Counted from the stretch's first letter, positions 18,081 to 60,959 are shown. The stretch: 64,000 bases of DNA from Candidatus Thermofontivivens primus (GCA_031458695.1 JAVKJW010000007.1:28219-92218), one strand, 5' to 3'. Notes: generated from the letters alone by a model not told the origin. Numbers and translations are program-made.

Positions 18081-18246
18081 ACCCTTATGCCTTCCTAGTC
18101 CCTGGGACCAATCCCAAGCGCCACGTACGCAGAGGATTACGACATGAAAAGACTTCTCTCCTGTGCCATTACCTCAAAGGCAAACGTTCCTGGTCAGCGA
18201 GCCGCCAGAAGCGCGCATTGTAACGGGTAGGAGCTCTTTCCTTGAG

Positions 18247-18293: not shown

Positions 18294-18321
18294 GTTTCAC
18301 AAAGAAGACTACTATGCCACA

Positions 18322-20245: not shown

Positions 20246-20248
20246 TAC

Positions 20249-24240: not shown

Positions 24241-24315
24241 GTAGCTCAGTGTTCAGAAGGAGACTGAGCAAAACTCCTGGGCCTCTTGCGAGGTGCCTGG
24301 AAGAGGAGGATGCCT

Positions 24316-25077: not shown

Positions 25078-25106
25078 GTTGCGAGCAAGCGCACAGGATT
25101 TCGAAG

Positions 25107-27427: not shown

Positions 27428-27663
27428 ACAGCAACCTCTCGGTCTCAGCGCAAGCGAGAGGCTCAGGCTCTCTGCCCACCTCTCCACAGTGTCCTCCGAA
27501 AAATCGGCGCGCCGTGGAACAGGCAGAGGAGACTGTAAGCGATCCGGCAACCGGTGTCGAGAAGGCTTGACAAACGTAGTCCCTCCACATCGATGCTTTC
27601 TGCCAATTGGATGGAGGTGCGCTAGGGGTCAACCGCCAAAGTCGCGTCTGAGCGATCTTCGAA

Positions 27664-28035
27664 TCATCGCAGCACTTCAATGCGTTGTGCCTCGATCTCG
27701 TTGTAGAACGTGTACTGCCCCACCCGCTTCATCTTGTCGAACCGGCCTACCACACGCACGCGCAGGCCATTCCGGAGGCCCTGGTGACGCCAAGCGAAAA
27801 CTGCCACAGATGCTCCGCCCTCTTCCAGCCGGAAGGTCGTATAAGGGTTGCCACGAGCGGAGATGCGTTCGCGGTAGGCAGCAATGGTTCCCGTCACGCT
27901 GACGATCTGACCGTCGTATCGGTCGGGGTTCTGGACAATATCTCGGACAGTAACCGTTAGTTGGGCGAGAGCTGAGGGAAGCAGTAGGGTGACAAGGAGG
28001 AAGACAAGAAAAACTTTCACACGAAGGGGCTTCAT
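27664..28035 (-). CDS. Secreted small protein, OB-fold-like, function unknown
   Basis: Signal peptide (MKPLRVKVFLVFLLVTLLLPSALAQ) then a beta-rich about 95-aa domain. Downstream of a 100-aa hypothetical in the same orientation. Confidence 0.45.
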   Translation of the reverse strand: MKPLRVKVFLVFLLVTLLLPSALAQLTVTVRDIVQNPDRYDGQIVSVTGTIAAYRERISARGNPYTTFRLEEGGASVAVFAWRHQGLRNGLRVRVVGRFDKMKRVGQYTFYNEIEAQRIEVLR

Positions 28036-28041
28036 CTTCTC

Positions 28042-28344
28042 TCACCCCTTGGTCTTTTTTCGCTCTTCCGGTACAACCAGGGTGAAGCGTTCCCGGCTAG
28101 GTACTGCACCCGTATTCCTTGCCACAGGCTCATTATACGGCACCTCTCGTCGGATGCGAAGGGTACACATGCGGATTCCAGGTTCCTTCCGGTCCGAAGC
28201 AGCATAATCACAACGATTGGTTTCCCCTTCGGTGAGCACTACTTCCCCTCCGCCCCGTACGACCTTCGTATTCTTCGAAAAGGGGTGGTTTGCTTCGCGC
28301 AAACCAAGTTTCATAGCGTCCTTCGAGATTGTCGTATCTGTCAC
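28042..28344 (-). CDS. Hypothetical protein
   Basis: 100-aa ORF with no recognisable motif. Coding status uncertain. Placed at the left edge of the lower-GC island. Confidence 0.25.
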   Translation of the reverse strand: MTDTTISKDAMKLGLREANHPFSKNTKVVRGGGEVVLTEGETNRCDYAASDRKEPGIRMCTLRIRREVPYNEPVARNTGAVPSRERFTLVVPEERKKTKG

Positions 28345-28430
28345 TACGTTCTACCCCCTGAGAGATGAAGGGGCAAGTCATCCAAGAGCTCTTGACAAGG
28401 CTAAGGTCTTGAGGTACCATATTCCACAAA

Positions 28431-29252
28431 ATGGAATTAATTTCCAGAAATAACAGACGCCGGGGGAATCCCCAGAATAAGGCAAAAGCAGCAGGGACTC
28501 TCGAGAAGGGTCTTGCTCTCCTCGAGTGGCTATCTCGGGGGAAAGGCGAGTTCACCCTTATGCATCTCGCAAACGCTGTGAGTCTTCCTCCTAGCACCAC
28601 ACATCGTATTCTTGCTGCGCTCGGCAGATTGGGTTACGTTGAGCAGGATCAAGAGACAAGGCACTATCGGTTGGGACACAAGGCAGTAGGATTCGCCGCC
28701 TCCATCCTTCAGCAAATAGACATGCTCCGGGAGGCTCGCTCTCTACTGCAGAACTTCGTATCAAAAACAGGGGAAAGTATTACATTGGCGACTTTGGAGG
28801 ATAAAGAAGTCCTCGTCATTGAGAAGGTCGAAGTATTTGACCGTCCGCGGCTGTTCCTGCACATCGGGAGACGCGCACCTGTGCATTCTACAGCCCTTGG
28901 GAAAGTTCTCCTTGCAGGTCTCCCAGACCGTGAGGTTCTCAACATTCTCAGGCGTACAGGAATGCCACGCCTGACGCCAAATACCATAGTTTCCCCCAAG
29001 CAGTTCCTTCATCACCTCCGCCGAGTCCGCCAGTTAGGATATGCCATAGACGACGAGGAGACTGTCTTAGGCGCAAGGTGCCTCGCTGTCCCGGTTTATA
29101 ACCATCTTGGTCGTGTAATTGGCGCACTGAGCTCATCTGGCCCGACGAGCATATGGACTGATAGATATATGAAAACGGTTCTTAGGCCCCTTCGAAATGT
29201 AGCTCATGAATTGTCGGTTCGCCTTGGATATTCGCCGTGGGTCAATCAATAA
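28431..29252 (+). CDS. IclR-family transcriptional regulator
   Basis: HTH (LEKGLALLEWLSRGKGEFTLMHLANAVSLPPSTTHRILAALGRLGYV) plus an IclR effector domain. The coding sequence has clearly lower GC than the flanks. Confidence 0.8.
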   Translation: MELISRNNRRRGNPQNKAKAAGTLEKGLALLEWLSRGKGEFTLMHLANAVSLPPSTTHRILAALGRLGYVEQDQETRHYRLGHKAVGFAASILQQIDMLREARSLLQNFVSKTGESITLATLEDKEVLVIEKVEVFDRPRLFLHIGRRAPVHSTALGKVLLAGLPDREVLNILRRTGMPRLTPNTIVSPKQFLHHLRRVRQLGYAIDDEETVLGARCLAVPVYNHLGRVIGALSSSGPTSIWTDRYMKTVLRPLRNVAHELSVRLGYSPWVNQ

Positions 29253-29285
29253 AGCGTGTGGCCTATAGAAAGGAGGGAAAAAACA

Positions 29286-30338
29286 ATGCGTGGGAAAAGA
29301 CGAATGAGTTACGTTCTGACCGTTCTGATGCTCGGCCTCTTTGTGCTCCCTGTGTTTTCCGCGCCACCAAAGGTGAAGCTCACAATGTTCATTTGGGCAG
29401 GCGCAAACCAAGGGGTAGTTCCACGGGAGGTTGTTCGACAGTATTTGCGCACCCATCCAAACGTAGAAATTGAATTCTGGGAATCTAACAATACCATTAC
29501 TTATCCCAAGATGGTAGCGGCTAAACAAGCGAATCCGAACAATCCCCTCATCCATTTTGGGTTCTTCAACATCGATGCAAGCAACCGTGGTGACGTAGAC
29601 GACATGTGGCTTCCTCTCGACGAGAAGAAGATCCCGAATATGCGTTTTGTACATCCGAGTCTACGTCGTCCCGGGAATCATGGAATAGGCTATGGTATCA
29701 GCGCCATGGGTTTAATGTATAATAAGAACTTAGTGCAAGAGCCACCAAACTCCTGGAGTGCACTTTGGGATCCGAAGTGGCGAGGAAAAGTTACCTTCTT
29801 CGATAACAACTTCATCCCTCTTGTCCTGGCGGCTCGCTTAAATGGAGGGAGCGAAAAGAACATCGATCCAGGATTTAAGGTCTGGTCAGAGAATGCCAAG
29901 AACATTCGGGCCCTTGTGACGAGCAACGATCAACTTAAGAACCTTCTCGTGAGTGGAGAGGCACTCATAGCGCCTTGGTTTACGAGTATATGGAAGTTCT
30001 GGGAGCTGGAGGGAGCACCGCTTGGCTTCATCAATCCTAAAGAAGGTGTAGTCGCGTTTCCTATCTACCTCCAAATCGTGAAAGGTAGCACTCCAGAGCA
30101 GATCCGGATCGCAGAGGAGATTATCAACGAACTGCTGGCTCCCGAGAATAACGCGCGATACGCTCGCCTGACATTCGGAATTCCTTCTGTGAAAGGAGCG
30201 CAAATTGCAGAAAGTGTCCGGCAGATTCTTAACCCAAAGCTTCTGGATACTGCCATATGGCTGGATTGGGCAACGATGGCCCAAAGGGCCAGCGAGTGGC
30301 GCCAACGGTGGGAGCGCGAAGTAAAATCCAGAATGTAG
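29286..30338 (+). CDS. ABC transporter substrate-binding protein, PotD/PotF (spermidine/putrescine)-type
   Basis: Signal peptide (MSYVLTVLMLGLFVLPVFSA) and a PotD-like fold. RBS GGAGGG lies 9 nt before the ATG at 29286. Confidence 0.7.
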   Translation: MRGKRRMSYVLTVLMLGLFVLPVFSAPPKVKLTMFIWAGANQGVVPREVVRQYLRTHPNVEIEFWESNNTITYPKMVAAKQANPNNPLIHFGFFNIDASNRGDVDDMWLPLDEKKIPNMRFVHPSLRRPGNHGIGYGISAMGLMYNKNLVQEPPNSWSALWDPKWRGKVTFFDNNFIPLVLAARLNGGSEKNIDPGFKVWSENAKNIRALVTSNDQLKNLLVSGEALIAPWFTSIWKFWELEGAPLGFINPKEGVVAFPIYLQIVKGSTPEQIRIAEEIINELLAPENNARYARLTFGIPSVKGAQIAESVRQILNPKLLDTAIWLDWATMAQRASEWRQRWEREVKSRM

Positions 30339-30357
30339 AGGAGCTTCTGAGGGATTC

Positions 30358-31521
30358 ATGCTGGCCACATCAAACCAAGAAGTCGAAGTCCAACTCGTCG
30401 AGGTTACAAAACGCTTCGGAGATGTGACAGCGGTAGAATCTGTCTCATTCACGGTACACAAGGGAGAATTCTTCTCTCTTCTGGGGCCGTCAGGATGCGG
30501 AAAGACCACTACTCTCCGACTCATCGGAGGATTTGAGTTTCCCGATACGGGAGAAGTATACTTGAACGGCCGCCCGATGGGGAGGATTCCTCCAAACCGG
30601 CGTGAGACAAATATGGTGTTCCAGCGTCTTGCGCTTTTTCCTCACTACTCTGTGTTCGAGAATGTCGCGTTCGGGCTACGAATGAAAAGAGTCCCTGAGG
30701 CAGAGATACGCCGTCGGGTCACAACTGTATTAGAGATGGTCCAGATGAGCGGTTTCGAAACCCGACGAATTACAGAGCTCTCGGGTGGCCAACAACAGCG
30801 CGTTGCGCTTGCGCGCGCGCTGGTGAATAATCCCCGGGTTCTCCTCCTGGATGAGCCCCTTAGCTCGTTGGACCTCAAGCTCCGGCTTCAGATGCAAGAG
30901 GAATTAAAACGCTTGCAGCGGGATCTCGGAACCACCTTTATCTACGTCACGCACGACCAGGGGGAAGCTCTTGCCATGAGTGACCGAATCGGCATCATGA
31001 ATAACGGCCGGCTCCTCCAGGTTGGCAGTCCTATGGAGATTTACGAGCATCCAAGTACCCCGTTTGTTGCAAGTTTCATCGGAGACACAAATCTGATTCA
31101 AGGATCCGTCGATTTTGTAGATGAAGAGGTGACAGCCATCACCGCTTCGGGATTACACCTCCTGGTCAAGCGTGCTGGCTGGGAGACCCCAGGGGATCAA
31201 GTTTATGTGTGCATACGTCCAGAGAGGATCCTGATGAACAGCGACCGTGAAACCGGCAATGTCCTCCACGGAAAAATCCAGGAACGTCTTTTTAAAGGGC
31301 ACTTCGTGCAGTACCGCATTCACGTGGGGCCTTTCACCCTACAAACCACAATTCCCTATGGAGGCAGTAACCGCATCTTCGGAATGGGCGAAGAAGTTAC
31401 AATCTCTTGGGATCCGCACCAAGCAGTTCTCCTTCAAGCTGATGAAGAGGGGAGGAACTTTGATGGATACTCTCCAAGTCGCAGGGATGAGCGTGCCGAG
31501 AGGACAGCGAGCACTCGGTGA
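30358..31521 (+). CDS. ABC transporter ATP-binding protein, PotA-like with C-terminal TOBE
   Basis: Walker A GPSGCGKTT, signature LSGGQQQRVALARAL, Walker B LLLDEPLSSLD. Confidence 0.85.
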   Translation: MLATSNQEVEVQLVEVTKRFGDVTAVESVSFTVHKGEFFSLLGPSGCGKTTTLRLIGGFEFPDTGEVYLNGRPMGRIPPNRRETNMVFQRLALFPHYSVFENVAFGLRMKRVPEAEIRRRVTTVLEMVQMSGFETRRITELSGGQQQRVALARALVNNPRVLLLDEPLSSLDLKLRLQMQEELKRLQRDLGTTFIYVTHDQGEALAMSDRIGIMNNGRLLQVGSPMEIYEHPSTPFVASFIGDTNLIQGSVDFVDEEVTAITASGLHLLVKRAGWETPGDQVYVCIRPERILMNSDRETGNVLHGKIQERLFKGHFVQYRIHVGPFTLQTTIPYGGSNRIFGMGEEVTISWDPHQAVLLQADEEGRNFDGYSPSRRDERAERTASTR

Positions 31522-32449
31522 GGTTCTCGCCGGAGAGCTCCCGGATGGAAGTCCCATTAAGATTCCGCTCATCGTGCTCAATGGCAGGCAGGAGGGACCA
31601 GTCCTCTGGCTGGGGGCTGGTCTCCATGGTACAGAAATTCCAGGTATGGAGGTTATCCGGCGAGTCTGCCGAGAGATTGTTGACCCACAAAGCCTCCGAG
31701 GGTCCATCATTGCCTCACCCCTCCTGAATCCTTTTAGTTTCCACCAACACCATATGCTGACTCCCCAGGATGGCTATAATCTGAACCGAGTCTTTCCAGG
31801 CGATCCTACTATGCTTCTGAGTCACCGGCTGGCATCCCTCATAACTCGACTGGCCGAATCATGCGACGTTTACATCGATTTTCACGCCAATCCTTCACCT
31901 GCCCTTCAATTCACGATCATCAAGCACCCAGGGGATGATGATCTCTGGAGGAAGTGCCAGTTGCTTGCGGAAGCTTTCGGGATCACGACAATCGAAATGA
32001 AACAAATGCATGAGCGCCACAGGACAGGGACCTTCACGGATTACGTCCAACTAGACCGTCGTAAACCATGTCTCGTGGTAGAACTCATCGCATGGAGGCG
32101 GTTCGATCCTCTCTCGATCCGCACAGGGATACGAGGAACTCTCAACGTTCTTAAGCACTTAGGGATGATCGATGGGGAAATTGAACCTCAGGAGGATGTC
32201 CCTATCATCCCCGGGAGGCTCTCCAGGATTGAGCTCACTGCTAACCGGGGTGGACTTGTCCATCCTCTACGGCTTCCAGGAGATCCGGTGCGGAAAGGGG
32301 AGACGATAGCGTTGATCCGCAATCCATGGGGCGACGTGGTAGAGGAAGTTCTCGCACCCATCCATGGATGGATCCTTGCTTGGCCGCTCCTTGGTAACCA
32401 AGCTGTCGCCACTGGGGACATTCTTGTGTTCATAGCCTTCCCTCAATGA
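31463..32449 (+). CDS. Succinylglutamate desuccinylase / aspartoacylase family (AstE/AspA; M14-like zinc deacylase, DoeB-like)
   Basis: Zn-ligand-like motifs (GLHGTEIPG, YNLNRVFPG, DFHAN) characteristic of the AstE_AspA family. Embedded between the ATPase and permease genes of the Pot-like operon. GGAGG lies 8 nt upstream of the ATG at 31463. The start overlaps the ATPase 3' end by about 59 nt. Confidence 0.7.
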   Translation: MDTLQVAGMSVPRGQRALGEVLAGELPDGSPIKIPLIVLNGRQEGPVLWLGAGLHGTEIPGMEVIRRVCREIVDPQSLRGSIIASPLLNPFSFHQHHMLTPQDGYNLNRVFPGDPTMLLSHRLASLITRLAESCDVYIDFHANPSPALQFTIIKHPGDDDLWRKCQLLAEAFGITTIEMKQMHERHRTGTFTDYVQLDRRKPCLVVELIAWRRFDPLSIRTGIRGTLNVLKHLGMIDGEIEPQEDVPIIPGRLSRIELTANRGGLVHPLRLPGDPVRKGETIALIRNPWGDVVEEVLAPIHGWILAWPLLGNQAVATGDILVFIAFPQ

Positions 32450-33294
32450 GAATCCAAGGTCTTCTCGCAGTTTGGTTTCTAGCCCCCGCATTGGGAATTA
32501 TGACGATCTTTTACTTGATCCCCCTGGGTGTTTATCTTCTGAATGGTTTCCATTTGTTTCAGAGCGGGAAAATCGTCCCAATATGGACTCTCCGTACGTT
32601 TGGTTCCTTCTTTCAAGATCCCTTTTCCTACCGCGTGATTGGCACATCCCTCAGCCTCTCCACCGTCGTTACGCTCCTGGATGTTGCTTTGGGTTACCCA
32701 ATTGCATACGCGCTACATACGAGGGTCAAGTCTCCCGGTATACGTGCGTTGATCGGGTTGCTGCTCTTCTCTCCCCTTCTGGTTAGCGTCGTAGTCCGGA
32801 CTTATGGATGGTTCATCCTCCTTGCCAACCAAGGTCTCATTAACGCGTTACTTAAAAATGCCGGGATTATATCACAACCTCTCCCCCTTCTGTTCAATAC
32901 GTGGGGAGTCATCATCAGTTTGGCCCATATTCTCCTACCGTTTTCTATTTTCCCGATTTACAGCATCATGACACGCATGGACCCTACCCTCAAAGAGGCG
33001 GCGAGAGATCTTGGGGCTAACTGGTGGAAAGCTTTCACCCAAATTACCCTCCCCTTAACTATGCCAGGAGTTATAACTGCAATACTCATTTGCTTTACGT
33101 TAGCCTTAAGTGCTTTCGTGACTCCACAACTCCTGGGGGGAGGCCGCATTCAAGTCCTCCCATTGACTGTCTATAACAACACAGTAGAAATTAATTGGCC
33201 GACAGGTGCCGTAGCCGGATTTACACTCCTTCTCCTTTCGATCACGGCTATCTGGATCATTAACGCGATCCTTCGGCGATTACCTAGCATATGA
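32446..33294 (+). CDS. ABC transporter permease (PotB-like)
   Basis: 6 TM with BPD_transp_1 EAA loop (EAARDLGANWWKAFTQITLP). Confidence 0.8.
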   Translation: MRIQGLLAVWFLAPALGIMTIFYLIPLGVYLLNGFHLFQSGKIVPIWTLRTFGSFFQDPFSYRVIGTSLSLSTVVTLLDVALGYPIAYALHTRVKSPGIRALIGLLLFSPLLVSVVVRTYGWFILLANQGLINALLKNAGIISQPLPLLFNTWGVIISLAHILLPFSIFPIYSIMTRMDPTLKEAARDLGANWWKAFTQITLPLTMPGVITAILICFTLALSAFVTPQLLGGGRIQVLPLTVYNNTVEINWPTGAVAGFTLLLLSITAIWIINAILRRLPSI

Positions 33295-34163
33295 ATACCA
33301 TACGACGTGAAAGATACCTGGAGAGCTACGAAGAAAGGAGCGAGATTTTTAGAACCGCGCTCCTCAGAGCAACTCTTGCATTTGGAACAGGGTTCATCCT
33401 TCTTCCTTTGATGATCGTCGCTATCTACTCCTTCAGCGAAGTAGCATATGGGATCTTTCCCCCTCCGGGGTTCTCGACGAAATGGTACGCTCACCTTTTC
33501 GCTCAGGCGACATTCCGAGGAGCGTTTTTCCGGAGTGTGGGCATTGGAATTTCGGCCACGACGATCGCGTTGTTGGTAGGTTTCCCCACATCCCTCGCAC
33601 TTGCTCGCACTCGCCTCGCAGCTGGGAATTTTCTCCGGGCCTTCATTCTCTCACCAATCGTGATTCCAAAAATTGTTCTCGGGGTGGGATGGTTTATTTT
33701 CTTTGCTCGGATCAGCCTCATTGGAGGGTGGATTCCGCTCATTCTTGCTCATACGGTCATCGTGCTCCCATTCGTTGTAGCCATTCTTACTGCTAATCTC
33801 TCCGGCCTTGACCCTACGATCGAAGAAGCAGCCCAGGACCTCGGAGCAGGCTTCGTAAAGGTTCTTTGGTACGTTATCCTCCCCCAGATCAAATCTGGAG
33901 TGATAATCAGTGCTCTCCTGGCTTTCATCGTCTCCTTCGACCAGGTCGAGAGTTCGATTTTCCTCGTTCGTGGTGAAAACAACACCCTTCCGATTGAGAT
34001 GTTCCTGTATATGGAAAAATGGCAAGATCCTACGATCGCAGCCCTGTCGACACTCCTCATAGGATTTGCAGCGGTTATAACATGCGCTACCGTTGCAATC
34101 AGCCGTGGGATTGACCTTTCAAATCTTCTCCCGACGTTGGGAGGGAAGAAATCCACCAGGTAA
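33291..34163 (+). CDS. ABC transporter permease (PotC-like)
   Basis: EAA loop EEAAQDLGAGFVKVLWYVILP and 6 TM. Confidence 0.8.
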   Translation: MNTIRRERYLESYEERSEIFRTALLRATLAFGTGFILLPLMIVAIYSFSEVAYGIFPPPGFSTKWYAHLFAQATFRGAFFRSVGIGISATTIALLVGFPTSLALARTRLAAGNFLRAFILSPIVIPKIVLGVGWFIFFARISLIGGWIPLILAHTVIVLPFVVAILTANLSGLDPTIEEAAQDLGAGFVKVLWYVILPQIKSGVIISALLAFIVSFDQVESSIFLVRGENNTLPIEMFLYMEKWQDPTIAALSTLLIGFAAVITCATVAISRGIDLSNLLPTLGGKKSTR

Positions 34164-34277
34164 CAGAAGGTACGCACGATCGAGAATGGCAGATGACACT
34201 TGCTAGCTTGACAAGGAATAAGCCTAACATATACGATTGACATCGGGTATATACTTCCTCTCCAGGAGGTGCCGCCA

Positions 34278-35861
34278 ATGGCCCGTTGGTTCGTTGTGGT
34301 GGTCGTCCTTCTTCTGTTGTCCACCCTGATCCCAGCTTCAGTGATGCATGCTCAACCCAAGCCAGGTGGCGAGCTCGTATTCGCGGCGACAGAAGAACCC
34401 GATACGCTAGATCCACAGAAGACCGGAACCGCGATTACGGGTCTTCTGATGCGCTACCTGGGTGATACCCTAGTCACCAAAGACCTCAAAGGGAACTACA
34501 TCCCGCACCTTGCGAAGTCGTGGACTATCTCCGGCGATGGACTTACGTGGACCTTCCAACTACGAAGCGGGGTAAAGTTCCATGACGGAACGCCTTTTAA
34601 TGCACGCGCTGTGAAATTCACCATCGAGCGCGCTCTTGCTCCAGAGACCAAGTCTCCGATCGCGGGAGCGTTGTTCGGCCCAGTGGCTAGTGTGGAGGCA
34701 GTTGGTGATCTGACGGTTGTGATCAAGCTGAAAGAGCCCTTTTCACCTTTCCTGGATAACTTAACCGATCCCCGGGCTATGATCATCAGCCCTCAAGCTG
34801 TACAGAGGCTCGGAGATCAGTTCGGAAGGGCACCTGTGGGGACAGGTCCTTTCAAGTTCCAGGAGTGGCGCAGCGCAGATCGTATCATATTCGTTCGCAA
34901 CCCTGATTACCAATGGGCACCTAGTTATGCCCACCAGGGCCCACCGTTCGTCGATCGCATCGTGGTTAGGATTATGCCGGAATCTGCGGCGCAGGTCGCG
35001 GCGTTCGAGCGTGGTGAACTTTCCGTCTTGCTTGCCGTACCCCCTACCGACGTACGTCGCCTCCAAGCGACGCAGAAGTATACTTTCTTCTCGTTCCTCC
35101 GCAAAGGCGTAGGATTATTTATGGAGTTCAATATAACAAAGGAACCCTTCTCTGATCTGAGAGTTCGCCGTGCTTTCAACTATGCCGTTGAGAAGAAACT
35201 TGTTCTGAACATCGCACTCGAAGGCCTTGGTGAGGTTGCGTACGGCCCGCTTCCACCCTCGATCTGGGGTTACTGGGACGGAGTCAAAGACTATGCACCT
35301 CGTTTCGACCCCGGAGAGGCAAGGCGGTTGCTTGCTGAAGCAGGCTGGCAGAGGGGTCAGAGCGGTTTCCTGGAAAAAGATGGCAAACCCTTCAAGTTTG
35401 TCCTTTACATAGCTCCTATCGACACCTGGCGGCGTTCGGCTCAAGTAGTCCAGGCCCAACTCAAGACATACGGCATCCAAATGGAGATCCAAACGTTTGA
35501 GTTCGGTACCCTGCTCAGCAAGCTCAGGGCCGGTGAGCATCAGGCCGAGTTCATGGGATATACATACACGTCCCCAGACATCTTCTACCTCTGGTTCCAC
35601 TCCTCCAATATTGGGAAGGGCCTCAACTTCAGCCATTTCAAAGACACAAAACTGGATGAGTTGATCGAGGCATCGCGCAAGGAAATGAACCAAACCCGCC
35701 GTCTGCGGATCTACAGGGATATCCAAAAGTACATCATAGACAAAGCGCTTTGGGTACCTCTGTGGATTAACCATTTCTATATTGCCGTTCAACCCAACGT
35801 GAAGGGAGCGAAGATACATCCTGATGGTTTTCTCGCCCTGAACGATGTCTATATCCAGTAG
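34278..35861 (+). CDS. ABC transporter substrate-binding protein, family 5 (DppA/OppA peptide/nickel type)
   Basis: Signal peptide (MARWFVVVVVLLLLSTLIPASVMHA) and an SBP_bac_5 fold. GGAGG lies 8 nt before the ATG. Confidence 0.8.
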   Translation: MARWFVVVVVLLLLSTLIPASVMHAQPKPGGELVFAATEEPDTLDPQKTGTAITGLLMRYLGDTLVTKDLKGNYIPHLAKSWTISGDGLTWTFQLRSGVKFHDGTPFNARAVKFTIERALAPETKSPIAGALFGPVASVEAVGDLTVVIKLKEPFSPFLDNLTDPRAMIISPQAVQRLGDQFGRAPVGTGPFKFQEWRSADRIIFVRNPDYQWAPSYAHQGPPFVDRIVVRIMPESAAQVAAFERGELSVLLAVPPTDVRRLQATQKYTFFSFLRKGVGLFMEFNITKEPFSDLRVRRAFNYAVEKKLVLNIALEGLGEVAYGPLPPSIWGYWDGVKDYAPRFDPGEARRLLAEAGWQRGQSGFLEKDGKPFKFVLYIAPIDTWRRSAQVVQAQLKTYGIQMEIQTFEFGTLLSKLRAGEHQAEFMGYTYTSPDIFYLWFHSSNIGKGLNFSHFKDTKLDELIEASRKEMNQTRRLRIYRDIQKYIIDKALWVPLWINHFYIAVQPNVKGAKIHPDGFLALNDVYIQ

Positions 35862-35864
35862 GCG

Positions 35865-38496: not shown

Positions 38497-38547
38497 TAAC
38501 AGCTGGGCGATCCCGTCGACAGGAATCTGAACCACAGGAGGCGAGGA

Positions 38548-39387
38548 ATGCGCGTCTATATTTCTGTCGATATGGAAGGGATTTCTGGCGTTGTCGCAGG
38601 GAAGCAAGTTCAGAGTGGTGAGAAGGACTATGAGCGATTCCGACGGCTCATGACCTTGGAGGCGAATGCAGCGGTTGAAGGTGCGCTGGATGCAGGTGCT
38701 TCCGAAGTCGTTGTGAGCGACGGTCATGGCCCGATGACCAATCTCCTAGTAGAAGAGTTGGACCCTGCGGCTCGTTTAATCAGTGGGAGCAATAGGTTGC
38801 TCGGCCAGATGGAGGGAATCGATAGAGGTTTCGATGTCGCCTTCTTCGTGGGGTACCACCAGAGGGAGGGAGGAAATGACGGCGTTCTTAATCATACGCT
38901 TTTGGGGAAGATCGTATATGAGGTTCGTGTGAATGGAGAACCCGCGGATGAAGCGATGATCAATGCGGGTTTGGCGGGAGCTTTCGGCGTGCCTATTGGT
39001 CTCGTCACGGGCGATCGAGGTGTGTGTGAAGAGGCACAGAAACGTTTTAGGGGTGTGGTTATTGCACCGGTCAAAGAAGGGCTCGATCGCTTCACGGGAA
39101 TAACGTTGACCCCGGAGAAAGCACGTGTGCTGATCCGTGAGAAAGCAGTTCAGGCTATTCACGCTACCCGTGCTGGCTTATTGTCGCCATACCGGGTTGA
39201 GGAGCCTGTAACGTTCGAGGTAGATTTCAAGCGGACATCTCCAGCACACATGTGTACCCTGTTTCCGGGAGTCGAACGCGTAAGCCCCAGGACAATCCGG
39301 ATCATCGAACACGACTATGTCCGCGGCTTTAAACTGTTTTGGGGTTGCCTCATTGTCGGTGCGGCGTCTTTTGAAGGCATTTTGTAG
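38548..39387 (+). CDS. M55-family D-aminopeptidase (DppA-type)
   Basis: MRVYISVDMEGISGV...VVSDGHG...FFVGYH are hallmark Peptidase_M55 motifs. Confidence 0.8.
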   Translation: MRVYISVDMEGISGVVAGKQVQSGEKDYERFRRLMTLEANAAVEGALDAGASEVVVSDGHGPMTNLLVEELDPAARLISGSNRLLGQMEGIDRGFDVAFFVGYHQREGGNDGVLNHTLLGKIVYEVRVNGEPADEAMINAGLAGAFGVPIGLVTGDRGVCEEAQKRFRGVVIAPVKEGLDRFTGITLTPEKARVLIREKAVQAIHATRAGLLSPYRVEEPVTFEVDFKRTSPAHMCTLFPGVERVSPRTIRIIEHDYVRGFKLFWGCLIVGAASFEGIL

Positions 39388-39978: not shown

Positions 39979-40713
39979 ATGAGCAAAAAGGTTGCATGGA
40001 TCTTAGCCATCGCCGGTGTGCTGGCCATCGCCATTCCCGTGCTGGCACAGCCCTACTGGTTCGGACCCGGTATGATGGGGGGATATGGACCAGGAAGCCG
40101 TCCTGGTTACGGGTATGGGCCGGCGGTCCCTCCGACCGCCCAGCCTATCAGCATGGACCGTGCCATAGGGATCGCGAGATCGGCTGTCATCGCATACGGC
40201 AATCCGGACCTGGTACTCGATGAGATTATGGAGTTCACCCGCAACTTCTACGTTGTCGTCAAGGAGAAGAGCACCGGCATTGGGGCGTTTGAGCTTCTCG
40301 TCGACCGCTTCACTGGCGCAGTCTATCCTGAACCCGGTCCCAACATGATGTGGAATACCAAGTACGGCCACATGGGTGCATGGCACGGTGGATACGGCAT
40401 GATGGGCGGATACGGCATGATGGGTGGATACGGCTGGGGGCCCCGGTGGGGCTACCAGGCTCCCGCGCAGACGACACCCCAAACAGCTTTGCCCGTGACC
40501 AAGGAGCAGGCCATGCAGATCGCCAATCGCTACCTTGCAACAGTCATGCCCGGGGCCAAGGCTGAGGACGTCCATACATTCTACGGCTACTACACCGTCC
40601 ACGTTGCCCGCGGGGGCAAGATCGTGGGGATGCTGAGTGTCAACGGCTACACCGGTCAGGTTTGGTACCACAACTGGCACGGAGACTTCATCCGGGAGAA
40701 GGAACTCTCATGA
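39979..40713 (+). CDS. Secreted tandem PepSY-domain protein with Gly/Tyr/Met-rich linker
   Basis: Signal peptide (MSKKVAWILAIAGVLAIAIPVLAQP). Two PepSY-like modules (ISMDRAIGIARSAVIAYGNPD..FYVVVKEKSTG and VTKEQAMQIANRYL..YTVHVARGGKIVGMLSVNGYTGQVWY). They are separated by GYGMMGGYGMMGGYGWG repeats. RBS GAGGAG upstream. Confidence 0.55.
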   Translation: MSKKVAWILAIAGVLAIAIPVLAQPYWFGPGMMGGYGPGSRPGYGYGPAVPPTAQPISMDRAIGIARSAVIAYGNPDLVLDEIMEFTRNFYVVVKEKSTGIGAFELLVDRFTGAVYPEPGPNMMWNTKYGHMGAWHGGYGMMGGYGMMGGYGWGPRWGYQAPAQTTPQTALPVTKEQAMQIANRYLATVMPGAKAEDVHTFYGYYTVHVARGGKIVGMLSVNGYTGQVWYHNWHGDFIREKELS

Positions 40714-41072
40714 ACGAGCAGACGCTCCTGTGGATTGTGGTTGCAATCCTCGCCCTCTTCCTCCTCGGCCCGATCTTGAGTGGGCTTGGTTGGATGGGGG
40801 GATGGGGGCATGGATGGATGATGGGCCCCTGGATGATGGGGAGATGGTGTGGATGGGGCGGGCAGGCTCCTTGGGGTGCTCCATGGATCTTCTGGCTGCC
40901 CCCCTTAATTCAGCTCCTGCTCCTCATCGGCCTCGGGGTGGTCGTGATCGTGCTTTTGGCAAGATCACGACCCGCAGAAGGATCCCCCCTGGAGATCCTG
41001 CGGAAACGCTACGCAGCGGGCGAGATTTCCAAGGAGGAGTTCGAGGAAGCTCGTCGCATCCTGGGGGTATAG
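40710..41072 (+). CDS. SHOCT-domain membrane protein with Trp/Met/Gly-rich periplasmic-side tract
   Basis: ATGA-coupled to the PepSY gene. One or two TM segments, a GWMGGWGHGWMMGPWMMGRWCGWGG tract, and the C-terminal SHOCT signature ILRKRYAAGEISKEEFEEARRIL. Confidence 0.6.
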   Translation: MNEQTLLWIVVAILALFLLGPILSGLGWMGGWGHGWMMGPWMMGRWCGWGGQAPWGAPWIFWLPPLIQLLLLIGLGVVVIVLLARSRPAEGSPLEILRKRYAAGEISKEEFEEARRILGV

Positions 41073-41080
41073 CGGTATAG

Positions 41081-41116
41081 CCGTGTAGGGGCGACCCATG
41101 GGCCGCCCCTACACGG
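41081..41116 (+). terminator. Perfect 13-bp stem hairpin (CCGTGTAGGGGCG...CGCCCCTACACGG) after the SHOCT gene
   Basis: Seen directly in sequence 9 nt after the stop codon. No U-tract, as is common in GC-rich genomes. Confidence 0.4.
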
Positions 41117-41472
41117 CTGGCGCCTGTTCTCCAGGTTCGAGGAAGATCGCCTCGCCAGGACATCCCCTGACCACCGCCTCCTTCGACGCCAAGATTTTGT
41201 GCAAGGCGAATTGACTCTTGGAGTAGGGTCAGGCAGGGTATCCTCTCCCCGGGCAGGAGTTTGATGGTGTATAGTGAATCACCTCATAGAGGGGCTCCCT
41301 GCTGGTCTGGGCGGTCGTGTCTGTCCGAACCAGCAGCTCAGCTCGTCAGAGGAGGGAGAACTCCTGTTATTTTGCCGGCGGACGGAGGACACGATCTTGA
41401 ATTGGATCCCATTTGCTGTCCTATTTTTCACCAATATTGCCATAAGTCAGAAGGCAGGAAGGAGGGAGTGTG

Positions 41473-42690
41473 ATGGGAACGATGAGGCAGCGAATTCTGT
41501 TCCTGCTTCTGCCAGTTGTGATACTTCCCCTTCTCAGCATGGGACCCGTCTTCGCGCAAAACCCTATCGTGATCGGATCGTTCGGCCCATTCTCTCCTCC
41601 CGGGTCTATTGCCCAGTGGAGCGAGGCTGTGGATGGGATCAAGCTGGCCGTGGAGATGATCAACGAACGAGGAGGAGTTCTTGGCCGGCCTATTCGAGTC
41701 CAGTTTGAGGATAGTGCAGGGATTCCTGAGAGGGGGAGGGCTGCCGTTGAGAGATTGATCACCCAGCATAAAGTCCCGGCCATCGTGGGCGGGAACCACA
41801 GTTCGGTTTGCCTGGCCGTGACCGAGATCGTTCATGCGCGTCGCATCCCCTTCATCAATGTGAACTGCTGGGCAAACGCTATTCGGGAAAAGGGATACCC
41901 GGAGGTTTTTAACACAGCCGTCGTAAATGCCAGGATCGCTGTTGCTGGAGCCTACTTCATCAGGCATCTGGGGAGCAAGACCGTGGTCGCCTTTGCAGAG
42001 AATACGGACTTCGGGATAGGCTTAGCACAGGCGCTTGGTAGCCGGCTGAAGGCGATCGCCCCCGATGTACGATACACTTATACCGTATTGGATCGCGAAG
42101 CGAAAGATTTTGCCCCTGCCATCCTTGGTTTTGCCCAGAGGCCCCCAGATGTTGTCGTGACGATTATGGACCCGCCTGCGGGCTACATTATTATTAACCA
42201 ACTCAAGGAGTTCGGTGTGGCACCGACTCCACGAACATGGCTGCTTGATTTGGATGCCCTAGCAGAACTTCCAGACTTTTGGGACAACGTTGAGGAAGCA
42301 GGCAAATTCCTGACAGGAATCGCTCTTTTCCACCCCGCGATGAAGCTCACGGACCTTGGGCAAAGCGTTCGAGAGCGTCATAAGAAACGGACAGGTCGCG
42401 AGGCTAGCAGGCTGGTTTTCCAAGGATTTGATGCGATGTGGGTTATGGCCGATGCAATCAAGCGCGCAGGCTCGCTGGAGGCGGGAGCAATAATCAAAGC
42501 ACTAAGGGCAACAAACCTTGTGGGCACACGAGGGCGTATCTCGTTCAGCCTTGAACGGGGTCCCTTCTTCCAGCAATGGGTTGAGGTTCCCTTCGCAATC
42601 ATCCAGTTTACGGAGGTCAAACAGCCGCTTGAGCGATCAACAATCGTCTTCCCATTAGCTCAGGCGACCGGTACCCTCCGAAGACCTTAA
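41473..42690 (+). CDS. Branched-chain amino acid ABC transporter substrate-binding protein (LivK/Peripla_BP_6)
   Basis: Signal peptide and a type I periplasmic binding fold. GGAGGG lies 6 nt upstream of the ATG. Confidence 0.8.
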   Translation: MGTMRQRILFLLLPVVILPLLSMGPVFAQNPIVIGSFGPFSPPGSIAQWSEAVDGIKLAVEMINERGGVLGRPIRVQFEDSAGIPERGRAAVERLITQHKVPAIVGGNHSSVCLAVTEIVHARRIPFINVNCWANAIREKGYPEVFNTAVVNARIAVAGAYFIRHLGSKTVVAFAENTDFGIGLAQALGSRLKAIAPDVRYTYTVLDREAKDFAPAILGFAQRPPDVVVTIMDPPAGYIIINQLKEFGVAPTPRTWLLDLDALAELPDFWDNVEEAGKFLTGIALFHPAMKLTDLGQSVRERHKKRTGREASRLVFQGFDAMWVMADAIKRAGSLEAGAIIKALRATNLVGTRGRISFSLERGPFFQQWVEVPFAIIQFTEVKQPLERSTIVFPLAQATGTLRRP

Positions 42691-42727
42691 AAAGTTTTCA
42701 TCGCGGGAGGAATCAAAGGTTTGAACG

Positions 42728-43615
42728 ATGATGGAGATCCTTGTTACAGGGGCCATCATGGGAACTTTTTATGCCATGCTGGCCCTCGGTCTTTCCCTGA
42801 TTTTTGGAATTCTCAAGGTTGTCAATTTCGCTCATGGCGAATTCTTTATGATCGGTGCGTACACGTACGCTATTCTCACTCGTACTTTCGGAGTGACCTC
42901 TTTCTTGGCAGTCCTCCCTGCAGCGCTCATGGGAATCGCTGCAGGCCTGATCGTTGAGCGCCTGCTCATGCGACCGCTCTATCAAAGATACATGGAGTGG
43001 GCAACGCTACGCGATGAGTATGCCGTGATTGTCACATTCGGGCTTTCTCTCTTCCTGATCAACCTTGCAAACCAAGTCTTTGGCCCCTACCAGATCAGTG
43101 GTGCGGGGTTGGTCCCGTTGCGGGAGAGAATGCAGGTAGGAGGAGTAACCCTTAGTACCCATCGCGTGCTCGCTTCGATCCTTGGCGCAAGCATCCTCCT
43201 TGCTGCCTATCTCCTCATCAAATACACCTACTGGGGAAAGGCAGTCCAGGCTGTTGCACAAAACCGCTTTGGCGCAGCTATCGCTGGGATTGATTCCACT
43301 CGAGTCAGCCTCATTGTGTTCGGGATTTCCGGAGGCTTGGCTGCTGTCGCAGGAGCGTTGCTCTCTCCCATATTTCCTGCAGAACCCTTCGCGGGAGCGT
43401 TCCCTGCTGTGAAGTCCTTCGTTGTAGTAGTGCTGGGGGGAATGGGCTCTCTTCCTGGAAGCATTATAGGAGCCTATCTCCTTGGCATTCTTGAGCAGGT
43501 GGGTGCAGTGTATGTTTCCTATACATACCGAGATACCTTCGCATTTCTCGTTCTCATCCTTACACTGCTCTTGAGGCCACAGGGGATCCTGGGAGAGCGT
43601 GTTCGCGAGGTCTAA
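42728..43615 (+). CDS. Branched-chain amino acid ABC permease LivH-like
   Basis: LivH-type N-terminus (MMEILVTGAIMGTFYAMLALGLSLIFGILKVVNFAHGEF). Confidence 0.85.
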   Translation: MMEILVTGAIMGTFYAMLALGLSLIFGILKVVNFAHGEFFMIGAYTYAILTRTFGVTSFLAVLPAALMGIAAGLIVERLLMRPLYQRYMEWATLRDEYAVIVTFGLSLFLINLANQVFGPYQISGAGLVPLRERMQVGGVTLSTHRVLASILGASILLAAYLLIKYTYWGKAVQAVAQNRFGAAIAGIDSTRVSLIVFGISGGLAAVAGALLSPIFPAEPFAGAFPAVKSFVVVVLGGMGSLPGSIIGAYLLGILEQVGAVYVSYTYRDTFAFLVLILTLLLRPQGILGERVREV

Positions 43616-43617
43616 GT

Positions 43618-44658
43618 ATGCGAGCGGATTGGCGTATCTTCAACGCAAGAGACATTGGAATGGTCTTGCGGATATCCTTCGGTGCATGGCGGAGGCAGTG
43701 GTTGGACCTCGCCCTCACGTTTGGGATGCTCATACTTGCAGCAATCCTCCCTTTGGGTATTCCATCGATCTACTGGCAAGGCGTGCTCACCGTTACTCTT
43801 GTATACGCCCTTGCCTCCACTGGCTGGAACATCCTGGGAGGTTTTACAGGCCAATTCTCCCTTGCGCCGGCGACTTTCCTGATGCTCGGAATGTATACTT
43901 CTGCCCTGCTCGTACACTACCGTGGGTGGCCTCCGGTGGCAGGAATCCTGGCAACGCTTCCAGTCACGAGCGTGATCGGTATGGTTCTCGGTCTCCTTTG
44001 CCTTCGCCTTAGGGGACCGTACCTGGCGCTTACCACTGTCGCATTCTCAGAGATCACAAGAAACCTCATCAGGTTTTCCTACAACTTTACTCGGGGAGAT
44101 CTTGGGCTCAGTGTTCCTACACTCTATGGGATGGAAGGTAATCGCCTTTACTATTACTACACCATCTACCTCCTGAACATCGCTGTGATCCTGGCCGTCC
44201 ATCTCTTGATGAGCTCTAGGGTGGGCCTTTACCTGCGGAGCATCCGTGATGATGAAGTAGCCGCTGCGGGACGAGGGGTAAACACAGTTCTTTGGAAGAC
44301 CATGGCATTTACCATCAGCAGCTCTATCTGTGGACTGGCTGGTGGCTATTATGTGCACTTCATCGGTCTCGCGAGCCCGGAAATGGGACTGTTGCTTCAA
44401 GCTGGGTTCATCATCAGTATGGCCGTGATCGGAGGGATGGGTACGTTAGGGGGGCCACTCGCAGGCGCCATGCTGCTCTACCCGCTTTCCGAGTACGTTC
44501 GGAGGTTTGGGATCCAGTATATGGTCATCTTCAGTTTTCTCATGATTCTCATGATCAGATTCTGGAAGGCAGGGATTTATGGAACGATCTTGAACATCAT
44601 GGATCGCTGGGTGACTTCAAGTGGAAGTGCCCCTGCTTTGGGTTCAAAATATCTCTAA
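43618..44658 (+). CDS. Branched-chain amino acid ABC permease LivM-like
   Basis: BPD_transp_2-type TM pattern; position in the liv operon. Confidence 0.8.
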   Translation: MRADWRIFNARDIGMVLRISFGAWRRQWLDLALTFGMLILAAILPLGIPSIYWQGVLTVTLVYALASTGWNILGGFTGQFSLAPATFLMLGMYTSALLVHYRGWPPVAGILATLPVTSVIGMVLGLLCLRLRGPYLALTTVAFSEITRNLIRFSYNFTRGDLGLSVPTLYGMEGNRLYYYYTIYLLNIAVILAVHLLMSSRVGLYLRSIRDDEVAAAGRGVNTVLWKTMAFTISSSICGLAGGYYVHFIGLASPEMGLLLQAGFIISMAVIGGMGTLGGPLAGAMLLYPLSEYVRRFGIQYMVIFSFLMILMIRFWKAGIYGTILNIMDRWVTSSGSAPALGSKYL

Positions 44659-45358
44659 ACGCTTCGGAGGCCTCCAAGCGCTCTCGGGCGTCTCTTTTAA
44701 GCTTGAAGAGGGAGAATTGGTAGGACTCATTGGTCCGAATGCTTCAGGTAAGACGACGCTCTTGAATGTGATCAACGGTTACCACACGCCTGACTCCGGG
44801 TGGATCCGATTGCGAGGGGAACGTATCAATGGACTGAGCCCCTTCCAAATTGCCAGGAAAGGTGTTGCCAGGATGTTTCAAATCACCCATATTTTCCCCC
44901 GCATGTCGGTCCTTGAGAACATGCTCACCGTGGGTTATGCGATCGGTCGCATCCCCGCCAAAAGTCTTGTACATCGTGCCCACGAGATTTTAGATCAGCT
45001 CTCTCTCCGGGATTGGATCTATGAACCGGCAGCAAGCCTCTCCGGAGGTCAACGGAAACTCCTGGAATTTGGAGCTTGTTTTATGGCAGCCCCTAGGTTG
45101 GCCTTATTGGATGAGCCCTTTGCGGGTGTCCATCCCGAGCTGAAGGCGGTCATGGAAAGGTTCATTCAATCGTACCATGCAGAGGGAGGGACGGTCTTCA
45201 TTGTGAGCCATGATATACCTGCCCTCGTTTCCATCTGCCCCCGCTTGATTGCCCTGCATGCAGGTGTCCTTCTCGCAGATGGACCTACAGAGCAAGTCAT
45301 CCGAGATGAAGCTGTGCTTGAATCCTACCTCGGGAGTTATACCCCCTCAGAGGTGTAA
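44621..45358 (+). CDS. Branched-chain amino acid ABC ATPase LivG-like
   Basis: Walker A GPNASGKTT, signature LSGGQRKLLEF, Walker B LLDEP. GTG start. Confidence 0.85.
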   Translation: MEVPLLWVQNISKRFGGLQALSGVSFKLEEGELVGLIGPNASGKTTLLNVINGYHTPDSGWIRLRGERINGLSPFQIARKGVARMFQITHIFPRMSVLENMLTVGYAIGRIPAKSLVHRAHEILDQLSLRDWIYEPAASLSGGQRKLLEFGACFMAAPRLALLDEPFAGVHPELKAVMERFIQSYHAEGGTVFIVSHDIPALVSICPRLIALHAGVLLADGPTEQVIRDEAVLESYLGSYTPSEV

Positions 45359-45362
45359 CGCC

Positions 45363-46085
45363 ATGGAGTACCTCCTGGAGGCGGAGCATATAACTGCAGG
45401 CTATATTGAGGACGTCGATGTATTGCAAGAAGTTTCTGTCCGTGTGATACAAGGTTCTATTACAGGAATGATTGGGCTCAATGGGGCAGGGAAGAGTACG
45501 TTCGTGAAAACGGTCTTCGGATTTCTTAAACCCAAAAAAGGGCGGATCCTTCTTGAAAAGGATGATATCACAGGAATAGAACCGCATATATTGATCCGAA
45601 AAGGCCTATGGTACCTCCCCCAGGAATCGAGTCTGTTTCCCCACCTTACCATTGAGGACAACCTCCTTATCCCAACCCGGGTGATAGGCCTGAGTTCGTA
45701 CGAGATCAGAGATCGATTGGAGCACGTCTACACGAGGTTCCCTGAGCTAAAGGCAAATCGAAAGAGGCATGCTGGAGATCTTAGCGGGGGGCAGCAAAAG
45801 ATACTGGAGTTCGCCAAGGTCCTTATGGTGAAACCTCGTTTGCTCTTTATCGATGAACCAACCGTTGGCATCTCCCCGAAGATCGCAGCAGAAATCTATA
45901 CCATGATCCAACAATTTTTAGGCGAGGGAACATCGGTATTTCTCATCGACCATAACCTCCGCAAACTTGTAGATTTGACGGATTATGTGTATGTGATGAG
46001 CCTAGGGCGGATCGTCGCCGAGGGGCCATCTTCCCAGTTTCAAGACAGTCTCAAAGAACAAGTCCAACGATGGTTAGGCCTCTGA
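45363..46085 (+). CDS. Branched-chain amino acid ABC ATPase LivF-like
   Basis: Walker A GLNGAGKST, signature LSGGQQKILEF, Walker B LFIDEP. Confidence 0.85.
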   Translation: MEYLLEAEHITAGYIEDVDVLQEVSVRVIQGSITGMIGLNGAGKSTFVKTVFGFLKPKKGRILLEKDDITGIEPHILIRKGLWYLPQESSLFPHLTIEDNLLIPTRVIGLSSYEIRDRLEHVYTRFPELKANRKRHAGDLSGGQQKILEFAKVLMVKPRLLFIDEPTVGISPKIAAEIYTMIQQFLGEGTSVFLIDHNLRKLVDLTDYVYVMSLGRIVAEGPSSQFQDSLKEQVQRWLGL

Positions 46086-46251
46086 GACTCACCGACATTT
46101 CCACGGTTCGGCACCCTTCCCTACGACTCTTCCGAGACTTTGACATCGTATTTCCGGGAAACCGCTAATTACAAGTATTTTAGGCATGGAAGGCCGAAAC
46201 AGGGGTCGATGGTTATGTATGCGTGGGGAAGAATTAAGGGATTCGCCAGTT

Positions 46252-60924: not shown

Positions 60925-60959
<35 letters not shown>

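Follow-up and report, generated by a model that had tools for sequence, protein, structure and literature searches.

Lower-GC transport operons of Candidatus Thermofontivivens primus: a probable mosaic of acquired cassettes around a native-like gene pair

Introduction

Genomic islands of the classical kind combine a block of deviant guanine-plus-cytosine (GC) content and codon usage with an accessory cargo (here nutrient uptake) and a patchy, context-variable distribution; they also bear the hallmarks of their own mobility: a tRNA target, an integrase or recombinase, direct repeats and transfer genes. The subject of this report is a lower-GC interval of transport and hydrolase operons, at positions 27650-46100 of a 64,000-nucleotide stretch of DNA from Candidatus Thermofontivivens primus (GCA_031458695.1, JAVKJW010000007.1:28219-92218), which in its full length is called the window below. 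The interval shares the first set of features with classical islands and differs from them in the second, none of which is found here; it differs also in being, as we read it, composite, with a cargo that is largely typical of the host's own lineage.

The three transport modules of the interval have described counterparts. Module 1 resembles the PotABCD importers in its SBP_bac_6/8 binding protein, its PotA-like ATPase with a TOBE domain and its two permeases, and differs from them in having a deacylase gene inside the operon and an IclR regulator. The dpp (dciA) operon of Bacillus subtilis, dppABCDE, places the M55 D-aminopeptidase DppA beside a Dpp-type binding protein and two permeases. Module 2 has the same association of an M55 gene with a binding protein and two permeases, which would imply import and hydrolysis of peptides containing D-amino acids, and departs from the Bacillus operon in two respects: there is no DppD-type ATPase gene in the window or in any examined relative, and there is an extra hydrolase of the beta-lactamase fold. 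Module 3 has the five-component architecture of Escherichia coli LivJ/K-HMGF (HAAT), that is, a Peripla_BP_6 binding protein, two BPD_transp_2 permeases and two ABC_tran ATPases with BCA_ABC_TP_C; the difference is that the window's Liv operon behaves as a relocatable low-GC cassette.

What follows argues that the interval is, on balance, a mosaic: lower-GC operon cassettes of horizontal origin, with modules 1 and 2 as one block and Liv as another, lie around a native pair of genes. The cassettes were probably acquired in at least two events from relatives of lower GC.

A break in composition with discrete borders

The break in composition and codon usage is real and far beyond chance. (A technical note: the flanks of the 64-kb window are the sole stand-in for host composition in every GC and codon comparison.) The GC content of 27650-46100 is 0.536, that of the left flank 0.612 and that of the right flank 0.608. 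In 1-kb windows the interval averages 0.535 (standard deviation 0.029) and the 44 flank windows 0.611 (standard deviation 0.022; Mann-Whitney p = 6e-9), the flanks ranging per kb from 0.57 to 0.66 and the trough across ~28-46 kb from 0.49 to 0.57. GC at third codon positions (GC3) is 0.581 in the 18 genes of the interval vs. 0.730 in 39 flank genes (Mann-Whitney p = 2.5e-8), and GC at first positions is also reduced (0.598 vs. 0.650, p = 5e-4). The distance in synonymous codon fractions is 0.10 between interval and flanks and 0.027 between flank and flank, with corresponding chi-square values of 586 and 60 at 41 degrees of freedom. Maximum-likelihood segmentation of the whole 64 kb with two breakpoints places the borders at 27,900 and 46,300, for a log-likelihood gain of 155. 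By the yardstick of the window, then, this is the deviant composition and codon usage with discrete borders that are looked for in a genomic island. The first-pass annotation, which had proposed a single island of about 18.5 kb, located the drop at nearly identical coordinates, and the comparison of sliding-window GC, GC3 and codon usage that it suggested yields a significant deviation; the flanks, which it put at 65-70 % GC, have ~61 %. Its 19 plus-strand genes become 18, the sole extra candidate being an orphan open reading frame (ORF) on the minus strand.

That ORF, of 100 codons (28042-28344), lies in the left end of the low-GC DNA (28036-28430), where GC drops below 0.54. Public annotations list it as a gene, but it has no Pfam match and matched only itself among 1.84 billion representative proteins; because it has no homologue besides itself, it is probably not a gene and non-coding. 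Immediately outside is the left border gene, which encodes a secreted OB-fold protein (27664-28035, minus strand; weak tRNA_anti_2 match, E = 1.4e-4) and whose GC3, 0.64, is at the bottom of what native genes show. Immediately inside, a promoter-like site, TTGACA-17-TACCAT, is found at 28392-28420, ahead of the IclR gene of module 1. On the right the border gene encodes a Big_1-like protein (46252-46794, minus strand), the last gene of a native cupredoxin/Fer4/NrfD/Big_1 cluster that is accompanied by two-component regulators.

Two low-GC blocks and the pair between them

Is the trough one unit? The low-GC DNA forms at least two blocks. Block A (~28.04-39.5 kb, GC 0.51-0.55) holds module 1 (28431-34163, GC 0.514) and module 2 (34278-39387, GC 0.546); block B (~41.3-46.25 kb, GC 0.53) holds module 3 (41473-46085, GC 0.527). 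Between them, at 39.45-41.25 kb, sits a region with a flank-like GC of 0.597, and the one island of the first-pass annotation is accordingly split by a native-like pair of genes. The first of these encodes a secreted Gly/Met-rich protein (39979-40713, plus strand; GC3 0.73), and the second a SHOCT-domain membrane protein (40707-41072, plus strand; SHOCT 38 bits, GC3 0.67) that is followed by a palindrome of 20+20 nt (41079-41118). The IclR, Pot-like, Dpp-like, SHOCT and Liv families named in the first reading are all borne out by Pfam; PepSY is not, the Gly/Met-rich protein being PepSY-like by eye only, with no Pfam match at E <= 0.01 and no NCBIfam match, PepSY included.

One relative (L002) has a PepSY-like homologue (43 % amino acid identity) directly after Big_1, then a SHOCT gene, then cupredoxins: the same PepSY-like/SHOCT gene order, in the only relative with the pair beside Big_1. 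We read the pair as native and as belonging with the NrfD/cupredoxin cluster, from its composition and this synteny. An unconstrained internal segmentation of the interval chose 35.9-42.1 kb and did not isolate the pair, so that the composite model rests on gene GC3, on the synteny with L002 and on the density of strain differences considered below.

(Both genes have repetitive sequence. Tandem codon repeats rich in Gly, Tyr and Met, of GGYGMM type with an 18-nt period, occupy 40069-40440 of the PepSY-like gene, and a similar Gly/Trp/Met-rich stretch is found at 40788-40814 of the SHOCT gene; similar repeats, of the form GPGMM, are present in the homologues from L002.)

Synteny and strain differences

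The host falls in the CSP1-3/Sysuimicrobiota lineage (PMC11604079), which bears the NCBI label 'Armatimonadota'. Its NrfD protein has an exact match in the NCBI metagenome-assembled genome (MAG) GCA_030550015.1, a contig of which is 99.9 % identical to the window; since a handful of single-nucleotide polymorphisms (SNPs) distinguish the two, the window is a separate assembly of a strain close to GCA_030550015.1. The best relatives of NrfD beyond this one, at 74-79 % amino acid identity, belong to Armatimonadota/CSP1-3 MAGs, including Ca. Geohabitans and Ca. Calidihabitans tengchongensis, and the GC of their loci (0.65-0.74) lies above that of the window's flanks (0.61).

The order cupredoxin-Fer4-NrfD-Big_1 is conserved in at least eight relatives (L002-L011), and beyond Big_1 each of them differs. 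In none of the relatives examined, at least eight in number, do the operons of the interval stand beside the NrfD/Big_1 cluster; the synteny comparison that the first-pass annotation had recommended therefore finds the interval not to be conserved. The absence from the homologous locus and the patchy distribution are those of a genomic island, although among close relatives none turned up with a truly empty site. The cassettes themselves are present at other loci, in L141, L142, L147 and L148.

Comparison of window positions 17664-49406 with GCA_030550015.1 (contigs L051 and L145) yields 4 strain differences in 16.5 kb of low-GC blocks vs. 24 in 15.3 kb of native segments (P = 4e-5; after merging of clustered SNPs P = 0.004, with small numbers), that is, ~5-fold fewer strain SNPs in the low-GC blocks, the PepSY-like/SHOCT pair being counted as native. 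This low SNP density fits the blocks having been shared between strains more recently. As to where the differences lie, the left flank accounts for 16, several of them tightly clustered (e.g. 20773-20776 and 23610-23612), and the 1.8-kb PepSY-like/SHOCT region has 5 and one 3-nt indel.

Modules 1 and 2 in related genomes

Modules 1 and 2 are at home in high-GC genomes of the lineage. The five-gene set of module 2 recurs in L054, L061, L147, L060 and L057 at a host-typical GC3 of 0.81-0.97; module 1 recurs in L147, in divergent orientation to module 2, and in Ca. Geohabitans (L148), at a GC3 of 0.89-0.99. Because high-GC relatives carry both modules at host-level GC3 (0.81-0.99), low GC is not intrinsic to their genes. 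Many homologues of the SBP_bac_5 binding protein of module 2 are 70-90 % identical in amino acid sequence, several of them named Armatimonadota; a scan of metagenome contigs for it returned a single close locus (L061), the others being distant paralogues. The best non-self homologues of the Pot-like binding protein of module 1 are 76-83 % identical and likewise labeled 'Armatimonadota'. In a small tree of SBP_bac_5 proteins, the window's sequence groups with that of L141 as its sister, inside a set of high-GC homologues, and the window's SBP_bac_5 and SBP_bac_6 proteins have the most AT-shifted amino acid composition within their respective families.

The L141 copy of the Dpp-like module is 88-90 % identical to that of the window in amino acid sequence, has a gene GC of 0.565, and abuts a flank of 0.715 GC with a different neighbor, so that a low-GC copy is met in another host context as well; the flank present beside the module is only 270 nt long. 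With weak support (E = 0.009), the neighbor is identified as the C terminus of an S24 (LexA-like) peptidase, and the junction may have truncated a gene. (In L141 1-300, in-frame stops precede the S24 fragment, and the fragment ends where GC falls from 0.71 to 0.56.)

The Liv operon in related genomes

The closest copies of the Liv operon are found in L142, L143 and L144, with a LivK of 92.5 % amino acid identity and cassettes that are 84 % identical in amino acid and 76 % in nucleotide sequence. In L142-type genomes the five Liv genes lie between rng and brkB-rplU-rpmA-obg and have a GC3 of 0.60-0.65, their housekeeping neighbors having 0.70-0.87. The L142 organism is a genus-level relative, its Rng being 91 % identical to that of the window's species, in which the rng and brkB sides are on different contigs (by accession order only). 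Identity between the window and L142 Liv cassettes at four-fold sites is 0.41, with 0.26 expected by chance; this corresponds to ~1.2 substitutions per site, and for that reason the two copies are not recent duplicates of one transfer. Similarity between them starts and stops with the coding sequences, so that it is apparently the operon as such that is transferred or relocated. The next-best LivK homologues, at 62-71 %, include some partial sequences from Nitrospinota and Deltaproteobacteria and are AT-shifted in composition. The modules are also encountered apart: Liv alone in L142, modules 1 and 2 without Liv in L147.

Gene content of the modules

Module 1 opens with the gene of an IclR-family regulator (28431-29252; IclR_C 157 bits, HTH_IclR 56 bits; GC3 0.51), whose top NCBIfam match, BhcR, at 196 bits is under its 350-bit cut-off. 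A Pot-like solute-binding protein (29286-30338; SBP_bac_6/8; GC3 0.54), a PotA-like ATP-binding cassette (ABC) ATPase with a TOBE_2 domain (30358-31521; GC3 0.56), a zinc deacylase of the AstE/AspA family (31463-32449; AstE_AspA_cat 79.5 bits; GC3 0.55) and two BPD_transp_1 permeases (32446-33294 and 33291-34163; GC3 0.53 and 0.54) follow, all on the plus strand. Binding protein, one ATPase and two permeases make up a complete ABC importer, and homologues of the module bear the JGI label 'putative spermidine/putrescine transport'. The deacylase scores 67 bits against DoeB, for which the cut-off is 403, and because it falls so far short, family membership gives no reason to assign it an ectoine-pathway substrate.

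Module 2, also on the plus strand, has a promoter-like site (TTGACA-18-TACGAT, 34208-34237) upstream of the gene for its family-5 (Dpp/Opp-type) binding protein (34278-35861; SBP_bac_5 324 bits; GC3 0.60), an ORF of 530 amino acids for which the database gene call begins 3 codons downstream. The DppB-like and DppC-like permeases, recognized by Pfam, are encoded at 35874-36794 and 36794-37651. Next comes a cytoplasmic serine hydrolase of the class-A beta-lactamase fold (37648-38496; Beta-lactamase2 208 bits), and then an M55 D-aminopeptidase, DppA-like (38548-39387; Peptidase_M55 318 bits; GC3 0.55), which scores 204 bits against NCBIfam DppA, cut-off 430. The translation of the hydrolase has SxxK, SDN and KSG motifs, on which its designation as a serine hydrolase of this fold is based. 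It was also considered as a bona fide class A beta-lactamase and rejected: it reaches 106 bits against bla_class_A, under the cut-off of 200, and no signal peptide is visible. It is thus predicted to be a serine hydrolase with the fold of, and not itself, a true beta-lactamase.

The Dpp-like module is a conserved cassette of the lineage and usually includes the M55 D-aminopeptidase. It lacks DppD/F ATPase genes in the window and in L054, L057, L060, L061 and L147 and hence does not make up a complete ABC importer. Since DppD/F-type genes never occur in the module, its ATPases must, to judge from these loci, be encoded elsewhere or shared. (The loci are at 34278-39387 in the window, 10001-15085 in L054, 5677-10685 in L061, 10001-14269 in L147 and 10001-14263 in L060. 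Nearby in L054, a relative of 69-72 % GC, a metal-uptake operon with ZnuA, ABC-3 and ABC ATPase genes, at 16312-18822, has a GC of 0.62-0.63 and is thus a further transporter cassette that is lower in GC than the DNA around it.)

Module 3 consists of a LivK-like binding protein (41473-42690; Peripla_BP_6 170 bits; GC3 0.59), LivH-like and LivM-like permeases (42728-43615 and 43618-44658; BPD_transp_2) and LivG-like and LivF-like ATPases (44621-45358 and 45363-46085; ABC_tran, BCA_ABC_TP_C), all on the plus strand: a binding protein, two permeases and two ATPases, and thus a complete ABC importer. Taken together, we infer from these families that the modules would scavenge polyamines or N-acyl-amino compounds, peptides possibly with D-amino acids, and amino acids, by import followed by hydrolysis inside the cell.

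The toxin-antitoxin pair

The first-pass annotation had the interval adjoined by a toxin-antitoxin (TA) pair that stabilizes it. The genes are indeed there and abut: one for an antitoxin-like DUF433 protein (26642-27064, plus strand; Pfam E = 4e-6, 26.9 bits vs. a cut-off of 23.6) with a stretch at its N-terminus that resembles a ribbon-helix-helix, and, beginning directly after its stop codon and in the same direction, one for a toxin-like DUF5615/PIN-like protein (27065-27427, plus strand; Pfam DUF5615 35.8 bits vs. 23.8), which reaches a sub-cut-off 22.8 bits against PIN_10 and has no match in an NCBIfam search. Two small, adjacent, co-directional genes with antitoxin and toxin domains are what defines a type II pair, and other candidate DUF433/DUF5615 pairs are likewise two small abutting genes of the right Pfam families; the difference is that the scores here are barely above the cut-offs, and TA activity is putative. 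The pair is nevertheless external to the low-GC segment, separated from its border by ~0.6 kb and by the OB-fold gene; its GC (0.617) is at the native level, and at no compared locus in other genomes is it seen with the cassettes. For its composition, its outside position and the intervening gene, it is a native-GC neighbor and not part of the island, and no link to maintenance of the island is seen.

Weighing the explanations

How might the cassettes have come to lie where they do? The donor or donors would have been lower in GC than the host chromosome (native ~61 %). The operons of modules 1 and 2 are typical of the lineage and fall among homologues of high GC, so that their donor was probably a lower-GC relative from within that broad lineage; the outgroup homologues of the Liv cassette have a more foreign look. 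Since neither an integrase nor a tRNA or repeat marks the site of insertion, the route would have been recombination or illegitimate insertion, and the blocks would have been inserted on either side of the native pair at the synteny break. The horizontal origin proposed in the first reading is thus supported by composition, by synteny and by the sites of the cassettes elsewhere; what does not survive is their arrival as one island or the alien character of modules 1 and 2, since the comparison of taxonomic affinities between interval and flanks marks these modules as typical of the lineage.

A number of observations weigh against horizontal acquisition, or against parts of that account, and are best considered together. 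A scan of the 64-kb window found no tRNA or tmRNA, and hence no insertion at a tRNA gene. There is no integrase or transposase among the 18 genes of the interval (transport, hydrolase, regulator) or at its borders; the nearest transposases, at 59.1-60.7 and 63.1-63.9 kb, are at least 12.8 kb away. A search of 26-48 kb for border-spanning direct repeats gave short matches at chance level; megablast of the interval against the PLSDB plasmids gave no match; and an Rfam scan found no element within the interval. No genome was found with the cassettes at ~53 % GC in a background of 53 % GC, and thus no donor. The proteins of modules 1 and 2, at 57-83 % amino acid identity, are as close to those of CSP1-3/'Armatimonadota' MAGs as are native proteins (40-79 %), no coarse phylogenetic discordance is evident for these two modules, and the dinucleotide signature separates interval from flank no more than flank from flank (delta* 33-37). 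The native status of the PepSY-like/SHOCT pair depends on composition, SNP density and the single relative L002. Finally, given ~1.2 substitutions per four-fold site, Liv is possibly an old, vertically inherited cassette that was later relocated.

Several of these points would be expected if the interval had been inherited vertically, its weakly expressed accessory genes drifting locally toward AT under relaxed codon and GC selection in a host of falling GC. Modules 1 and 2 match the native genes in closeness to relatives, even the flanks of the window (0.61) have less GC than those relatives (0.65-0.74), mobility genes and a distinct dinucleotide signature are lacking, and the divergence of Liv from a genus-level relative (84 % in amino acids) resembles that of a housekeeping protein (Rng, 91 %). 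Drift, however, does not readily generate sharp borders at gene boundaries or spare the central pair, which has retained native GC; nor does it place the same cassettes at different loci in different hosts. An IclR/ABC/catabolic operon of similar kind at 18.3-26.5 kb keeps a native GC3 of 0.64-0.74, and the ~5-fold lower strain SNP density runs opposite to the prediction from relaxed constraint. This explanation is unlikely, if still to be reckoned with. Arrival of a single 18.5-kb island in one event, with stabilization by the DUF433/DUF5615 module, is more doubtful yet, and we consider it improbable: the co-orientation of all 18 genes, the similar GC3 of the three transport modules (0.51-0.63), the proximity of the TA pair (within 0.6 kb of the left border) and the intactness of the interval in all assemblies of the species speak for it, but a pair of native composition splits the interval, the modules are found separately (L142, L147; there is partial presence in L148 as well), and the native-GC TA pair behind its OB-fold gene does not accompany the cassettes in other genomes, no comparison supporting a stabilizing role for it.

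One might also suspect the junctions themselves, as an artefact of assembly or binning that joined organisms of 61 % and 53 % GC: the sequence is metagenome-assembled, and Logan contigs end within the interval at ~39.7 and ~41.0 kb. Such a chimera would require two (or four) precise intergenic joins without a shared repeat. Moreover, both junctions recur within contigs of separate, SNP-distinct assemblies: the window, GCA_030550015.1 and Logan SRR27730029, with the contig in 3 samples. The OB-fold junction lies in Logan contig L052 as well as in NCBI contig L051, and that of module 3 with Big_1 in Logan contig L053. The accession offset from NrfD to LivK is 6 in each of three NCBI MAGs, a consistent order. 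Junctions inside independent contigs and this agreement in accession order make a chimera very unlikely, indeed hardly credible. What remains the better account, and the one to which we incline, is a mosaic of acquired lower-GC operon cassettes around a native pair.

Other features of the window

The native-GC genes of the left flank include panE, recD2, mutY and an otsAB fusion. Just left of the TA pair, at 18292-26483, is a second operon, of native GC and similar logic: it encodes an IclR regulator, a binding protein, a fused double permease, a PotA-like ATPase, a family III CoA-transferase, a short citrate-synthase-like protein and MmgE/PrpD. Its ATPase is 47 % identical to that of the interval, the remaining components being only distantly related. 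For the fused permease, of 571 amino acids, the NCBI strain has two gene calls (385 and 174 amino acids); the SNP cluster at 20773-20776 is close by. Farther left, two ORFs overlap on opposite strands: 14707-16077 (minus), with a FAD_oxidored match of 318 bits, and 14785-16734 (plus; 649 amino acids), which is probably spurious, a shadow ORF typical of high-GC DNA.

At the other end of the window are remnants of insertion sequences: a split transposase with DUF772 and DDE_Tnp_1 domains occupies two overlapping ORFs (59109-60690, plus strand), possibly a frameshift or a pseudogene; a second DDE transposase is at 63090-63905 (minus strand). Between the two there is a borderline Rfam match to a group II intron domain (60923-60995, plus strand; 40.9 bits, gathering score 40).

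Methods

The GC profile was computed in 1-kb windows, with 27650-46100 taken as the island. Gene families were assigned by Pfam and NCBIfam profile searches, with the NCBIfam equivalog cut-offs deciding membership. Start positions follow the gene calls of L051 for the Pot-like binding protein and of L145 for LivG and LivF. L051 is the NCBI contig with the left junction; L052 and L053 are Logan contigs from SRR27730029. Gene order in the three NCBI MAGs was inferred from accession order. Counts from the promoter and terminator scan were not above those for shuffled sequence, and nothing but the location of two perfect -35 boxes was taken from it.

Implications

The feature is of the ordinary genomic-island kind and leaves the current understanding of genomic islands unchanged. 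It illustrates, with good documentation, the way in which an uncultured phylum, found mostly in hot springs and the subsurface, builds up accessory transport capacity: cassettes the size of operons, from related genomes of lower GC, would have gathered at a synteny break beside a respiratory gene cluster. It also counsels caution in calling islands by composition, since a low-GC block may be composite, lineage-typical, and close to a TA pair by coincidence.

One can go further and imagine that members of the CSP1-3/Sysuimicrobiota lineage exchange precisely bounded, integrase-free operon cassettes that have long been AT-shifted (synonymous divergence, Ks, ~1.2) and are mobile between sites and hosts. 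This is a long shot, but were it true, it would call for a hidden reservoir lineage of lower GC or for a mechanism that keeps the cassettes low in GC, and the ~5-fold lower SNP density would mark recent sweeps of cassettes through the population. More soberly, it is a modest lead that operon cassettes of low GC and without an integrase recur in related genomes at differing sites, and so is the ATPase-less module of Dpp-like transporter, hydrolase and D-aminopeptidase, which may point to the salvage of peptides and D-amino acids in this phylum.

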